DNA from: an uncultured Chlamydiae bacterium
Lineage (GTDB): Bacteria; Chlamydiota; Chlamydiia; Chlamydiales; SM23-39
Length of the DNA stretch: 64,000 nt
Direction: 5' to 3'
Assembly: GCA_963828125.1 (NCBI GenBank)
Contig: CAWHDP010000002.1
Coordinates: 608,001 to 672,000, forward strand
Shown piece by piece: positions 20,090-27,466 of this stretch (position 1 is its first letter; every line of letters starts with the position of its first letter). The translations under genes and the position numbers were made by a program. The notes below the pieces were generated by a model. That model was given only the letters and a program-made list of their open reading frames with translations, ran no database searches and was not told the origin of the DNA.

Positions 20090-20298
20090 GCCAATATGGT
20101 TATGAACCTGGCCACAAGAGCTAGGGAAATCTTTAAAAGTTCTGAAGTGGACGAAAAACGTCAACTTTTAGATTTAGTATTTCAGAACTTGCAATTGAAA
20201 GACGGAAATCTCTCATTTTCAGTGAGATAACCGTTCTTAACGATGATGGATTTTAAGAATCGTCCGAAAGAATGGGGGCGGCTGGACGGATTCAGAAC
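20090..20298 (+). pseudogene. Large serine recombinase C-terminal remnant running into an att-like site
   Basis: ANMVMNLATRAREIFKSSEVDEKRQLLDLVFQNLQLKDGNLSFSVR*PFLTMM...WGRLDGFRT resembles recombinase-family C-termini; internal stop; rest removed near the IS. Confidence 0.65.
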
Positions 20299-20855
20299 GT
20301 GCGACACGAGGTCGCTGGAGGGAATTGTCTTGAGACCACTCCTTATGCGCGCGGTCAAAACGGAAAACCTGATCAAATACCTGAATGTGAAAATTCAGGG
20401 GTGGGTCAATTATTACGGCACTGCGTAGCAAAAGCGACGTTTAACTACTTAGACAATAGCATATTCTGGATAGTTTGGAAGTGGGCCAAAAGGCGACATC
20501 AGAACAGGGGGGCATCCTGGATCCGGAAAAGGTATTACACTACCTTGGGACTCAGAAAGTGGTGCTTCTACTCGAAGGTGAAAGCGGGAAAACAAGAATC
20601 CCGTATTCTTCTCACTCTGGCACAACGCACGAAGATCGAAAGACACGTGAAGGTCAGGTCGGAAGCTTCGCCGTATGATCCCGATTTTAAGGAATATTTC
20701 ATAAAACGGAAAGGAGAAAAGATGAGAAAAAAAAATGATAGCTGGGTGATATGAGCCTTAAGAGAGGCTTGAGCCGTATGATGGGAAACTATCACGTACG
20801 GTTCTTAGAGGAGGAAACTAGGGCAACCTAGTTTCCTTACTCAACTTTTGATTGG
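20273..20855 (+). repeat. 36-bp att-like repeat, copy A, split by the group II intron
   Basis: TGGGGGCGGCTGGACGGATTCAGAAC (20273-20298) + TTTTGATTGG (20846-20855). Confidence 0.85.
20299..20845 (+). mobile_element. Internally deleted group II intron
   Basis: 5' GTGCG. Maturase domain X fragment LIKYLNVKIQGWVNYY / WKWAKRRH. Domain V GAGCCGTATGATGGGAAACTATCACGTACGGTTC, domain VI hairpin and 3' AAC. Confidence 0.92.
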
Positions 20856-20913
20856 CAGAAATTTTCCTCGTTACGTTACCATTTGCCAAAAGATTTCCTC
20901 ACAAATAGGCAAT

Positions 20914-21333
20914 ATGGTCAGATTGTACCGTTGGCTTCCGATCATGCTCGCCTATACCGCTGCTGACAGCGCTCAGCCTCCAGCTGTCGTTCATTATGAG
21001 CCAAGCATTGTACAGCTGACGGGAACTTTGAAAGAGTGCGTTTGCCCAGGACCTCCCGAATACGAAAACATAGAAATGGGAGATGCTCCAGAACATATTT
21101 TTGTATTGATGTTGGATCATCCCGTACATGTAAGAGAGCTCGAACCTAAAAAAGATTTTTTAGATGAACCCGAAGATAACGTTACTGAAATTCAAGTTGC
21201 AGCTTCTTCAAGCGAAGTACAACCAATTCTAGGTAAACATGTTAAAATCTCAGGCACGTTATTCCATGCCATTACGGCTCATCACAGAACAGAAGTCATC
21301 ATGATCAATGACTCCATGAATATAATAGAGTAA
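20914..21333 (+). CDS. Exported DUF4431-like protein
   Basis: Signal-like N-terminus; LTGTL..PGPPEYE..GD..E, GKHVKISGTLFHAITAHHRTEVI. Confidence 0.65.
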   Translation: MVRLYRWLPIMLAYTAADSAQPPAVVHYEPSIVQLTGTLKECVCPGPPEYENIEMGDAPEHIFVLMLDHPVHVRELEPKKDFLDEPEDNVTEIQVAASSSEVQPILGKHVKISGTLFHAITAHHRTEVIMINDSMNIIE

Positions 21334-21408
21334 AATTTAAACATGGAAATCGTTGATTGCTTAACAAAAACGCCTTATAATTGACTCCTACATAACGAGG
21401 TAGATTTT

Positions 21409-21817
21409 ATGGCGAACAAAAAGTACGTCTGGATTAAAGCCGAAGGAAATGCTGACCAGTCCATTACGTACCATGACCAAGATGGCAATAAGTTAACCCG
21501 CTATCTCGATCCAAAGGCTAAAAATCCACCGAGAGGAACTAAATCTTGGCGCCACCAAAACCCTGGAAATATTAATCATGGCGATTTTTCTAAGCGTCAC
21601 GGAGAAATTGGGTTCGCCTGTTATCCAAGCCCCTACGATCCTAAGAAAAAAAATCTGTTTTGCCATCTTCCCTGACTATGAAACAGGTAGACTTGCATTC
21701 GCAGCGCTTCTGAAAACGGAAAGATTCATTGATCTGACCCTAAATCAGTTTCCTCGATTCTATACAGGCCTTCTTAAAGATAGCCTGCCGGACACCACCT
21801 CAATCTATGCCAGATAA
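21409..21817 (+). pseudogene. NNPGN-motif (lysozyme-like) protein, frameshifted at an A8 run and probably truncated
   Basis: SWRHQNPGNI, then FAIFPDYETGRLAFAALL in another frame; deleting one A at 21646-21653 joins them. Confidence 0.6.
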
Positions 21818-21944
21818 AGTTGTTGGAGTGAAATTCTTAAAACACAAAGCCACAGAATTTCTAGTATACTTGGTGCAGCTGATATAAATTCGTCTTAAAA
21901 CACCTTTTGAAAAATAGATAATTAACATCAAATTTGCTATCAAT

Positions 21945-24909: not shown

Positions 24910-25167
24910 AGAAGCGCAATTCCTTTGCGCATTTTTTTTGAGTCATTCATCTGCCAAGCTGTTTTTAGCATTAATATGCTGGGAGGTAACGCAAAAAACG
25001 AAAACAATAAAAGCCCTAAACGGACTATAGAAAAAACGATGTATCCTTGTTCCATGAAAATCCTATCTTTGAGGAAGAGAAATATATAGAAACAAAAATT
25101 ATATTGTCAAACCATCACAAAAAAATAAATTCATATCTCTTTGAAGATAAGTAGATTGAAAGAACTT

Positions 25168-25203
25168 TGGGGGCGGTTGGACGGATTCAGAACTTTTGAT
25201 TGG
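25168..25203 (+). repeat. 36-bp att-like repeat, copy C
   Basis: TGGGGGCGGTTGGACGGATTCAGAACTTTTGATTGG (35/36 vs copy A). Confidence 0.85.
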
Positions 25204-25466
25204 AGAAAGTTACAAGACAATAATCGTCATTTGAACTGGCTGTTCCTTCAAAAAATAATAGTTTCGACTGGAGCGGTTTGCAAATGAGTCTTCCATCGCC
25301 GAGAAAAAAATTCCGAAACATCACAATAAGGATTCCTAGCCAAACAGATCTTAAATCGAAGATCGTCATTTCCTAATGCGATAGCTTGGAATTCCGCAAT
25401 GGACAAAGTAGTCTGTATACAGCTTTCTGAAATCGAAACCGCTGCCACAGCTTCTTGCTAGCTTTT

Positions 25467-26750
25467 TTAAGGAGCTTCGTAAGCTGTGTATTTCAGTGAT
25501 TTTCCCCGACATTTATCCGTTGGGTACTTTTGTTTCATTTTCTCAAACTTTTGATACGCGGCTTCAATTGGATCGATCTTGAGCTTATGAGAAAGATAGA
25601 GAACGGCTTTAAACACATCAGCAATTTCGTCTCGAACTTCTTGCAACGTCTTCGAGTCCGGATGGTAACTTTGCTCTTCACTCATCCATCGAAATAAATC
25701 CAAAAGTTCACCTGCTTCTGAAGCAAGATCCATCACTAGGTTTTTCGGAGAGTGAAACGGCTCCCATTGACGTTCTTGATAAAACTCAAGCAAAGATGTT
25801 AAGACTTTCTCATGAGGCACTTGCAGTTTTATCTCCGTTCTCCTCAAACGAGGAATAAATTCACTAAACGCATCTTTTACCGCCTTTGGATTTTCCACCC
25901 AGCCCATATGCCCAGCATCTTCTATAAAAAGTATTTTGATGTTGGGACGATGAAATCGTTGGTCTTTTTCAAAAAGAGAAAAAGGACAAATGCAATCATA
26001 CTTGCCACCGACAATTAAGGTAGGAGTTTGGTTAGGAATCCAACTGGCAGAAAAATTAAGCTCTATTGCTTTTCTCTGCCACCAAACTGCAGGCTGCCAT
26101 TGGAAAGGAACGTGAGAAAGCAATTCTCTCCCCCTTTCTAAAGTCTCCTTTGGAAAATAGTACGGTAGGCAAGCACTCAAGGCAGTATTGAAAGTTTCTT
26201 GATTTGGATGGAGGGTAAACTCCGTCATTTCCTGCGTTAAATCAGGCACATCAAACTGCTTAGAATAGTTTACCGCTTCTTCTAGCCATAAGGTTGGCGC
26301 AGCATTCAAAATGACAAACCCTTCGAGGTAATTTTCCAGCTCTGGAAACATCAAAGGAAACATCCCTCCAAATGAATGACCTACTAATACAGGATGATCA
26401 AATCGTCTGACAATCTCAGGAAAAAGTTCAATCCATTGATCAAAATTTTCTGCAAAATCATTCGGTACATTCGCTCCATTTCCAGGCAAATCGATGAGCC
26501 ACACGTTTCCAGGCAAATCTAATTGATCGACTAAACTTTTAAGATAACTTGAGTCCGCCCCTGGTCCGCCAGGAAAAAATAGCCAGTTGTACGGTTGCCC
26601 ACCATTTGTTTGATACAACTCATAACGAACCTGATTTGAATCATAAGAATAGTGGCTCATTTTTGGTCTCTCGTTTAAATTTTGTATTTCTGAACACAGC
26701 ATCATTGGAATGGCCAAATAACATAGTAGGGAAAATATTCTTGTCTTCAT
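25467..26750 (-). CDS. Alpha/beta hydrolase fused to a MazG-like NTP pyrophosphatase
   Basis: GGPG, GHSFGG, GKYD, AGH, then ERQWEPFHSPKNLVMDLASEAGEL...DEIADV. Confidence 0.85.
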   Translation of the reverse strand: MKTRIFSLLCYLAIPMMLCSEIQNLNERPKMSHYSYDSNQVRYELYQTNGGQPYNWLFFPGGPGADSSYLKSLVDQLDLPGNVWLIDLPGNGANVPNDFAENFDQWIELFPEIVRRFDHPVLVGHSFGGMFPLMFPELENYLEGFVILNAAPTLWLEEAVNYSKQFDVPDLTQEMTEFTLHPNQETFNTALSACLPYYFPKETLERGRELLSHVPFQWQPAVWWQRKAIELNFSASWIPNQTPTLIVGGKYDCICPFSLFEKDQRFHRPNIKILFIEDAGHMGWVENPKAVKDAFSEFIPRLRRTEIKLQVPHEKVLTSLLEFYQERQWEPFHSPKNLVMDLASEAGELLDLFRWMSEEQSYHPDSKTLQEVRDEIADVFKAVLYLSHKLKIDPIEAAYQKFEKMKQKYPTDKCRGKSLKYTAYEAP

Positions 26751-27211
26751 TTTTCAATCGCTATCAATATATCTACTTCTTTTGAAGTTCCTGAAAACTT
26801 GTGGCCGTAAACCTCATAATCCCCTGCATAGGTCCGCTTTAAATCTGAACGCCAAATATTACCCCAGGTATCGATTAGACTTTTGGGGAAATCACCCACG
26901 GCGCAATAAAGAGCAAAAGTTGACTCCGGAACTGTCTTACCAACCATTCCGTCAGGAATTGCCTCTAAAGAATTCACAACACACCCAATCACGCAAGAAT
27001 AGGGTTGGGTGTAATCCCCTTCATAGTCACAGTAGAGAGCAATTACTTCATCTGAAGCCTTGTTGGGAATCTTACTCTGGATATTTTCTGCATAAAATTT
27101 TTGCCAAAGCTGAGGAATATCCTGCGAGCCTGCATTAGGATCATTTGAAGTGCGACATTCAATGCCGACAACCATCATTCGAGGCTTGTGAACCTTTGTA
27201 AAATTTTGCAT
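26747..27211 (-). CDS. GyrI-like/Cass2 small-molecule-binding protein
   Basis: VVGIECRTSN, IPQLWQKF, YCDYEGDY, RTYAGDYEVY. Confidence 0.85.
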   Translation of the reverse strand: MQNFTKVHKPRMMVVGIECRTSNDPNAGSQDIPQLWQKFYAENIQSKIPNKASDEVIALYCDYEGDYTQPYSCVIGCVVNSLEAIPDGMVGKTVPESTFALYCAVGDFPKSLIDTWGNIWRSDLKRTYAGDYEVYGHKFSGTSKEVDILIAIEK

Positions 27212-27384
27212 TAGTCGTTCCTTGTTAGTATTTATTTCTTCTGCTGATTTATGGGCCTATAGAATGAATAATTGACTTCTGTCTCAAGGAAAAAGTGGGA
27301 CAGGGGTTGGACAAATCTGATAGTCAATCGATTGCCTGACCTTCTTTTTTGATCTTATTTCACTCATTTTTTACCTATGGAAAA

Positions 27385-27466
27385 TGGGGGCGGGCGGACT
27401 CGAACCGCCGAAAACCGAAGTTGGGGGATTTACAGTCCCCTGCAATTGCCGCTATGCGACACCCCC
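27385..27466 (-). tRNA. tRNA-Tyr(GTA)
   Basis: Cloverleaf; anticodon arm GGGGA-CTGTAAA-TCCCC; long variable arm; GGTTCGAG; CCA not encoded. Confidence 0.97.

Follow-up and report, generated by a model that had tools for sequence, protein, structure and literature searches.

The DNA analysed here, called the window, is a stretch of 64,000 nt from the chlamydial genome G000 (2.37 Mb in two contigs, C1 and C2), in which a tRNA-Tyr(GTA) gene (27384..27467, minus strand, by tRNA search) adjoins a stack of gene-bearing intervals delimited by a 36-nt repeat; labels of the form G### and L### denote genomes and fetched loci of the comparison set. A sequence-only reading had described three direct copies of this repeat (A, B and C) in the stretch 20273..27393. 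A pattern search of the window with at most 3 mismatches allowed gives exact 36-nt matches only at 24347 (copy B, 24347..24382, plus strand) and 25168 (copy C, 25168..25203, plus strand), with 0 matches in 100 shuffles. Copy A is broken: it is contiguous for 26 nt from 20273 (20273..20298, plus strand) and its final 10 nt begin at 20846 (20846..20855, plus strand), the two parts being split after base 26 by a 547-nt group II intron remnant (20299..20845, plus strand) that was absent from the earlier reading. From A to B the distance is 4074 nt, start to start, and the ~3.5 kb given before holds once the intron is left out. The first 9 nt of the repeat are identical to the tRNA-Tyr 3' end, as had been noted. 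Upstream of copy A lies the 3' tail of a large serine recombinase (LSR) gene (20056..20272, plus strand; last ~65 codons, with an in-frame TAA at 20228-20230), whose frame is continued by copy A; its homology to an intact relative (L009) bears out the view that copy A forms the end of a recombinase remnant, and no intact recombinase is present in 20273..27393, again as claimed. An insertion sequence (IS)-like element (18493..20055, minus strand), delimited by open reading frame (ORF) calling and by identical pieces elsewhere in the genome, abuts and probably truncates this remnant; no Pfam, NCBIfam or PHROG family was found for its 441-aa transposase-like ORF (18649-19974) or for three small ORFs.

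The recombinase-tail frame matches 18 of 41 genomes, G000 included. Its intact relative L009 encodes 514 aa with resolvase (PF00239), recombinase (PF07508) and zinc ribbon (PF13408) domains and scores 88 bits against the CcrB model (cut-off 900). Among the 30 best loci fetched, with targets assigned by ARAGORN or by eye, 28 have an LSR gene that meets no stop codon before it enters a stable-RNA gene at its 3' end, and the remaining two reach a contig edge; the 28 targets are 13 tRNA-Tyr (two of them identical), 10 transfer-messenger RNA (tmRNA), 4 tRNA(CAT) and 1 tRNA-Leu, and tRNA-Asn is a further target class seen in relatives. Four of the 120 best LSR homologues (three found by regular expression, P0078 by eye) end instead in the peptide encoded by the repeat, the kind of recombinase end to which the sequence-only reading had pointed. 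Because the gene runs stop-less into the RNA and these four proteins carry the peptide end, we place the attachment (att) site attP within the last LSR codons; the repeat is its P' half-site, at the far end of one island. When integrated, the LSR gene would read into the antisense strand of the tRNA, and in the circle, or at a tandem junction, into the P' arm (W-G-R-L-D-x-F-R-T-F-D-W). Relatives contain nine complete islands (6.7-16.5 kb), which extend from a P' arm to an LSR end, with the LSR at the tRNA end; attL, attR and an integrase of its own are found for each of these nine and not for the elements of the window. The Tyr-type P' pattern occurs in 65 of the 401 genomes of the phylum searched (reversed control, 0), and LSR ends lie at the tRNA in relatives, which supports the earlier proposal that the repeats are LSR att sites linked to tRNA-Tyr and to recombinase ends. 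The sole further full-type match in the whole genome, a fourth copy (26 nt plus the intron start) at G000:C1:405097, lies on the other contig with no tRNA nearby; its region is a 98-99% identical duplicate of the recombinase tail and of the start of the same internally deleted intron, and since parts of interval A-B are duplicated beside it we regard it as a rearranged copy, not an independent site.

The LSR and intron searches covered 400 genomes of the phylum (G045 was unscored in the LSR-family, intron DNA and reverse transcriptase (RT)-relative searches). At E 1e-30 the LSR family is found in 76 of the 400, and G000 is not among them; the sole PF07508 gene of G000 is of a different, tRNA-Leu-linked LSR type. 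An intact LSR of 537 aa (G000:C2:678121-679723) reads into tRNA-Leu(CAA); considered as a trans-acting enzyme for the stack, it was rejected, having no family match at E 1e-30 and a different arm at tRNA-Leu. Its arm also precedes tRNA-Leu(CAG) and three tRNA-like 3' fragments (C2:1644803, 1671890, 1066940, 1817566). Viral contigs gave 0 matches to the P' pattern and one 34% LSR relative without the att-overlapping architecture. Elsewhere in the comparison set, intact LSR islands (L179, L182, L184, L178, L180, L198, L206) sit in tRNA 3' halves that end at the anticodon loop, nested in another element's att fragment and not in a live tRNA, and in G212 (L227-L230, L237-L239) 15 Tyr-type P' copies are scattered among several contigs; two AT-rich left flanks recur there, and one LSR island is intact.

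Within the repeat, a GTCC/GGAC dyad is centred between nt 2 and 3 (GTCC at -13..-10, GGAC at +10..+13), and GAAC lies at +21..+24 as against +16..+19 in the tRNA, that is, 5 bp farther out. PMC3783163 describes an attP outer motif 5 bp beyond that of attB and a zinc ribbon domain (ZD) motif at half-site positions 16-24. Host-specific T-stems are kept beside the LSR in L187, L189 and L190, and islands that combine a Tyr-type P' arm with a tRNA(CAT)-type attL (G147, G143) share only the first 5 nt. From the dyad centre, the GAAC shift, the host-specific T-stems and the 5-nt sharing we infer a crossover at the start of the repeat, in copy A between 20274 and 20275 and on the tRNA side in the final bases of the acceptor stem (27386/27387). 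Conservation of the repeat extends to nt 36 and then falls (66 intron-free copies), with GAT in 32 and GAC in 24 copies at codon 11, which lies outside the search pattern; given this extent and the GAT/GAC choice, the outer repeat is probably held as protein code.

The left flanks of the three copies differ. On a P-arm matrix built from the arms of 12 LSR genes and applied to 24-mers, a single one of 54,720 background 24-mers scores above 10, and that one is copy A's own arm (~20249-20272); the scores are +33.5 for A, -17.9 for B, -34.8 for C and -33.3 for the tRNA flank. The upstream arm that had been read as common to A and B is therefore canonical in A and not in B, where GTCC stands one base nearer the repeat than in true P arms, and a reading of the left flank of B as a degenerate LSR tail was rejected on this score. 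What precedes copy B is a non-canonical right end (24286..24346, plus strand), identified by flank comparison and P-arm score and shared with G012, G353, G264 and G426. Copy A is accordingly best described as an attP-like junction (P|P') split by the intron, and B and C, both intron-free, as attR-like junctions (X|P'), with no recognisable attL at the tRNA.

The remnant in copy A starts with GTGCG, ends with AC, matches RF00029 at 20769-20845 (64.2 bits) and retains a maturase piece (PF08388, GIIM). It corresponds to positions 1-49 and 1642-2136 of the full intron of L089 (84-90% identity), with ~1.59 kb deleted; domains V-VI are intact, ribozyme domain I and most of the RT are gone, and this copy is predicted to be unable to splice. 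The full copy in L089 spans 2136 nt, scores 67.2 bits with RF00029 and 53.2 bits with RF02012, and encodes a 490-aa RT/maturase (TIGR04416, 377.8 bits, cut-off 300), in which a Pfam search found no endonuclease domain. Among solved structures its best match is the 6ME0 maturase (E 4e-169, 566 bits), followed by one at 154 bits and by IIC RTs at 111-131; PMC8643678 assigns the 6ME0 maturase to a CL1/IIB1 intron. The lineage thus looks IIB1/CL1-like, its RT clade being assigned by best match. RT relatives form one group at 83-91% identity, followed by a gap to at most 73%. Internally deleted copies that keep both ends, like that of the window, were also seen in L113/L114, L116, L115 and L104 (326 and 826 nt examples). 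A third intron piece of G000 (C2:982952-984720; L003:10950-12720) has a different 3' exon, and 1.2 kb beyond it a terminator is followed by an empty tmRNA-type P' arm; the piece and the arm are 33-35 kb distant from the tmRNA, and both are oriented away from it.

Used as a DNA query, the 547-nt remnant found matches in 33 of 400 genomes, from which 30 loci were fetched. Close relatives of the intron sit at the same base of P' arms, and the flanks of more distant ones are unrelated. Counted over every locus fetched, 14 different 5' junctions occur, each of them in the motif; the arms are of Tyr, Leu and tmRNA type (two are too altered upstream to type), and of 11 distinct 3' flanks 10 start with TTT and 6 have the full P' continuation. 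A scan for the intron alone, with a pattern of its first 33 nt made from known ends and so biased to the lineage but not to the flank, gave seven matches in species genomes, six of them in a P' arm and one a more distant intron elsewhere; the six repeat junctions from the 547-nt search. In metagenomes the same scan placed 9 of 9 matches (7 distinct) in P' arms, and viral contigs yielded 0 matches. The 10-nt 3' exon in the window is defined by an intron-free allele in G024, which has the same downstream kilobase at 94.6% and shows no target duplication. Across sites the introns are 81-97% identical, and the 3' exons diverge after 10 nt. Insertion occurs right after half-site position +24 (numbering +/-1), within codon 9 of the circle-specific C-terminus; the intron thus lies at the outer margin of the half-site, among codons by which the LSR gene is completed in the circle only. 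The Tyr-type P' contexts surveyed number 71, of which 5 are intron-filled and 66 intron-free.

The match between intron and target extends to the pairing sequences. Exon-binding site 1 (EBS1, GTTCTG) occupies the loop of a short stem-loop (z -1.96) near position 292 and, in the first 420 nt of four copies, is the sole full complement of intron-binding site 1 (IBS1, 20293-20298 in the window). PMC8643678 gives a IIB1 rule in which a 5-nt EBS2 is accompanied by an EBS2a two bases upstream that pairs with exon base -14; applied here, it assigns TACGT to EBS2 and C to EBS2a. Each of the 14 exons shows 6/6 pairing with EBS1 (two with wobble) and has a base -14 that pairs with EBS2a, and 13 of them show at least 4/5 pairing with EBS2; the empty copy C obeys the same rule. 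Four sister introns with other targets have an EBS1 altered to their own exons (5/6, 5/6, 5/6, 6/6), and EBS2a covaries from C-G to T-A in the three that are testable. Set aside were a hairpin fold for EBS2 (z -0.76, not significant), whole-domain folds of domain I, which were unstable between copies, and an off-column 6-mer from a local EBS1 search in the sister intron of L126, where the aligned column likewise pairs 5/6. Two sister introns (L126:673, minus strand; L128:922, plus strand) sit in the same conserved motif of a transposase like that at 18649-19974 of the window, and the clade may be specialised on several mobility genes.

The cargo of the stack is as the sequence-only reading had listed it, the toxin-antitoxin (TA) pairs, DUF4431, Cass2/GyrI and hydrolase-MazG genes being confirmed by domain search. 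Interval A-B begins with a DUF4431 gene (20848..21333, plus strand), its left module, which is also found behind P' arms in G024, G301, G015 and G419; it continues with HigB toxin and HigA antitoxin genes (22200..22837, plus strand) and a fragment of a terminase large subunit (22957-23244, minus strand) cut by a 133-bp multi-copy element (23260-23393), together spanning 22957..23393 and found by family and repeat searches. Its right module is a Gp49-like toxin gene, split into two ORFs, with a helix-turn-helix (HTH) antitoxin gene (23578..24219, minus strand). The cargo gene of interval B-C (24496..25055, minus strand) has, in comparison with three relatives, lost ~290 bp internally, and between C and the tRNA lie an alpha/beta-hydrolase-MazG ORF (25467-26750) and a Cass2/GyrI gene (26747-27211), both on the minus strand (25467..27211). 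The 133-bp element has at least 4 near-full copies elsewhere in the genome and is possibly a miniature inverted-repeat transposable element (MITE); as for the fused ORF, its hydrolase part and its MazG part have their matches at different loci in relatives (with 2 candidates scored for each genome), and the fusion may be a chance in-frame join. Finally, a paired GGGACA-like motif, a putative tyrosine-integrase arm site, stands at 27295..27313 (plus strand) and recurs beside a displaced tRNA-Tyr 3' half at G000:C2:1378458.

Standard LSR excision requires both an attL (P arm plus tRNA arm) and an attR. Because a canonical P arm is present at A alone, attL partners are missing for all intervals, the cargo is broken and G000 lacks a cognate LSR, the stack is best read as decayed tandem islands and not as an integron. 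Three islands would have entered tRNA-Tyr in turn, interleaved with other elements using the same gene, after which deletion and IS-driven rearrangement removed the recombinase ends and left a dead stack. Serial integration, as originally proposed, is thereby upheld, and the idea of integron-like cassettes open to excision or shuffling by an LSR acting in trans is not supported as stated. For an integron proper, no PF00589 match occurs in or beside the stack, the nearest being a fragment at window 4695-4982, 15 kb off, in a search without an IntI-specific model. The repeats are direct half-sites that code for an LSR peptide and the intervals are multi-gene in both orientations, unlike attC cassettes, an assessment made without an attC model. 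No excised circle was found in any data examined; four DNA runs, available as assembled contigs only, gave 3 joints, none at a repeat, and are uninformative on circles. At G000:C2:1378251, 743 kb away, a P arm (+30.2) is joined to an identical 55-nt 3' half of tRNA-Tyr, which suggests that another element once entered tRNA-Tyr and that the region was rearranged later; a contig of run X2 that joins this P arm to a whole tRNA-Tyr was not used, since it may stem from strain variation or from the way in which the assembly passed through the 55-nt repeat.

Taking both lines together, we consider it probable that LSR islands at the tRNA-Tyr 3' end decayed into the present stack and that the intron lineage found at a fixed base of the P' arm gets there by retrohoming into the motif. 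The P' motif would offer a target that recurs and is safe, being constrained twice over, as DNA bound by the recombinase and as coding sequence. An endonuclease-minus intron would need replication-fork priming (PMC4424553). Several results weigh against this explanation. A 3' end close to the lineage, in L048, has an unrelated flank, and seven of the 9 metagenome matches stem from two assemblies. EBS2 fits most sites with one mismatch, and in two sister introns it pairs equally well with the att exon and with their own exon, so that EBS2 alone does not discriminate; when the pairing rule is loosened it matches 15 sites in G000, 4 of them clear P' arms and about 11 outside att sites, and protein contacts or selection must therefore add specificity. 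As to the stack, a canonical P arm stands on the left of only 7 of the 71 P' contexts, and G012, G142 and G173 contain orderly stacks with hairpin-ended units beyond what random decay leads one to expect. Stacks of short units (0.8-3 kb) that lack an LSR occur in G012 (1.3, 3.1 and 1.3 kb), G142, G129, G169, G185, G006, G173 and G008; in G008 two P' copies enclose the B-C cargo, which there comes before the TA module instead of after it; the TA module has the same 60-bp right end in G012, G353, G426 and G264 (83-91% identity); and the arm ahead of the left module of A-B is of Tyr type in G024 but of tmRNA type in G301.

What the intron does to its host island divides the remaining readings. 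Insertion could leave the att site usable and the intron transcribed from the LSR gene upon circularisation, or it could block the site. That the lineage homes to the P' arm and there acts as a dead end, blocking recombinase binding or splicing poorly and so stranding the island, is quite conceivable, and we lean only slightly away from it: none of the 9 complete islands with an intact LSR carries the intron, a count that is undecisive at an occupancy of 5/71, most copies are truncated or internally deleted, and PMC8632793 reviews introns that suppress transposases and relaxases. The converse, that the intron is specialised on the attP of this LSR family and rides it, is offered as a tentative and rather doubtful extension; lying just outside the recombinase footprint, the insertion would leave the island excisable, and the intron, silent at attR, would be reached by transcription of the integrase gene across attP only in the circle, where splicing would restore the integrase C-terminus and release mobile intron just as the island travels; the same relaxed integrase may also shuffle the short units without recombinase behind chlamydial tRNAs.

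For the stack, the better-placed rival derives the right ends of the intervals from other users of tRNA-Tyr, either tyrosine-integrase elements or hairpin MITEs, which would move or rebuild short units in place of the LSR. It would account for the 55-nt tRNA-Tyr half flanked by a true P arm and, across from it, by arm-like motifs (G000:C2:1378251-1378458), for the arm-like motif at window 27295, for the same 90-bp end upstream of a tRNA-Tyr copy in G142 and for palindromic inserts at the same site in G011, G005, G012 and G353, and G000 has 19 PF00589 matches; on the other hand, the label of arm site is provisional, and 20273-27393 contains no tyrosine integrase. We lean against this rival, and it is compatible with the decay of LSR islands, where it would mainly explain the replacement of right ends. 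Live non-autonomous cassettes moved in trans by a relaxed LSR, for example by joining X|P' with the tRNA site in the manner of CcrAB or TnpX, appear unlikely. They are favoured by the recurrent LSR-less units in eight genomes, by the reordered B-C cargo in G008, by the shared right end of the TA module, by the left module behind two arm types and by the highly variable left flanks of P' copies, a variability that would oblige the cassette enzyme to accept almost any B arm. Against them stand the missing attL partners and cognate LSR, a copy A split by a dead intron, the broken cargo, a TA module that lacks the shared right end in G008, G011, G013 and G317, and a comparison of 100 family genomes (2-5 candidates scored per genome) in which no whole interval was found end to end. 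Least credible, and in our view highly improbable, is a single ancient entry of the intron into a P' arm followed by passive spread: islands do move between genera and the window and C1 copies are one duplicated event, but the 5' exons come from Tyr-, Leu- and tmRNA-type arms, the 3' exons diverge next to introns that are far more alike, the same island DNA is intron-free in G024, the third G000 copy has a different 3' exon and the EBS sites match the att motif.

Two kinds of palindromic sequence were observed beside P' copies. Hairpin runs of 130-150 bp separate units in L222 (G012:C9), L223/L283 (G142:C1), L241 (G006), L095 (G173) and L287 (G353); each starts with ~17 nt of the tRNA-Tyr end and closes in a terminator-like stem before the next P' arm or tRNA, and in G012 they alternate with the units so regularly as to suggest a MITE or another kind of cassette end. 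A palindromic insert of ~100 bp lies between the LSR P arm and the tRNA-Tyr 3' end in L210 (G011:C14) and L217 (G005:C282), and its right end also precedes P' copies in G011 and G005.

The closest known counterpart of the islands is the Dehalococcoides ssrA system with DsiB (PMC3146451), likewise a set of tandem islands behind a stable-RNA gene with a CcrB-like serine recombinase overlapping attL; the DsiB 3' end may be whole only in the circle, as here, and members without an integration module are read there as cis-mobilisable or fixed. Our family differs in targeting tRNA-Tyr, tRNA(CAT), tRNA-Leu and tRNA-Asn beside tmRNA, and in a crossover identity of ~5-9 nt as compared with a 20-bp repeat, and the word intron is absent from PMC3146451. 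Cis-mobilizable element (CIME) accretion (PMC5704250) and the Islander catalogue (PMC4383910) describe the same stacks of integration, decay and reintegration at tRNA ends; those tRNA cases use tyrosine integrases, whereas the family described here is one of serine integrases. Serine integrases were not then known to target tRNA genes according to PMC4383910 (2014), the point is left open in PMC12884075 and PMC12424338, and the main text of PMC10083194 makes no mention of tRNA or tmRNA. The stack itself thus appears to be ordinary decay, tandem LSR islands being already known for tmRNA (PMC3146451), and the att-homing intron would be the new part.

Among introns, the IIC-attC introns of integrons (PMC4424553, PMC7923331) resemble ours in that one intron lineage inserts again and again into a site-specific recombination site of gene-capture elements. 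Here, in contrast, the RT is CL1-like, the pairing is of IIB1 type, and an attP half-site that is protein-coding in the circle is recognised by sequence and not as a folded attC hairpin. The IIB1/CL1 introns EcI5, Th.e.I3 (T.el4h, PDB 6ME0) and EcKTE56.groEL (PMC8643678, PMC12584367) have the same EBS2/EBS2a arrangement and a comparable specialisation on one conserved context; ours differs in having no detected endonuclease domain (490-aa ORF) and in targeting an att arm instead of a gene's stop codon or an ordinary ORF. Homing to mobility genes is also known from introns in mobile elements, such as RmInt1 in IS and Ll.LtrB-type introns in relaxase genes (PMC8632793). By comparison with these, recombination here would create the host gene context, since the exon pair is contiguous with the LSR gene only after excision or in tandem junctions. 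Full-text literature yielded no report of an intron lineage homing into serine-integrase att sites, and subscription papers, intron databases or supplements may hold one.

If borne out, LSR att sites would join the known specialised targets of bacterial group II introns, namely homing sites in genes, terminators and attC, and would provide a natural case in which the host reading frame of an intron exists only after recombination, so that excision could switch the intron on. The analysis also documents a large LSR family of environmental chlamydiae that targets the 3' ends of tRNA and tmRNA genes with few shared bases and tolerates almost any downstream arm; environmental chlamydiae lack genetic tools, for which this family is a candidate integration tool. 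Because the crossover as placed here leaves almost no tRNA duplication, island finders based on tRNA fragments would be expected to miss the islands of this family.

To the left of the stack, ORF fragments at window 7426-11951 look by eye like the remains of a type I-E CRISPR-Cas locus into which IS elements have inserted, and 13254-18448 encodes an Rhs protein of 1519 aa (PF05593) followed by a small ORF; the low-GC region around the stack reaches far into this side of the window.

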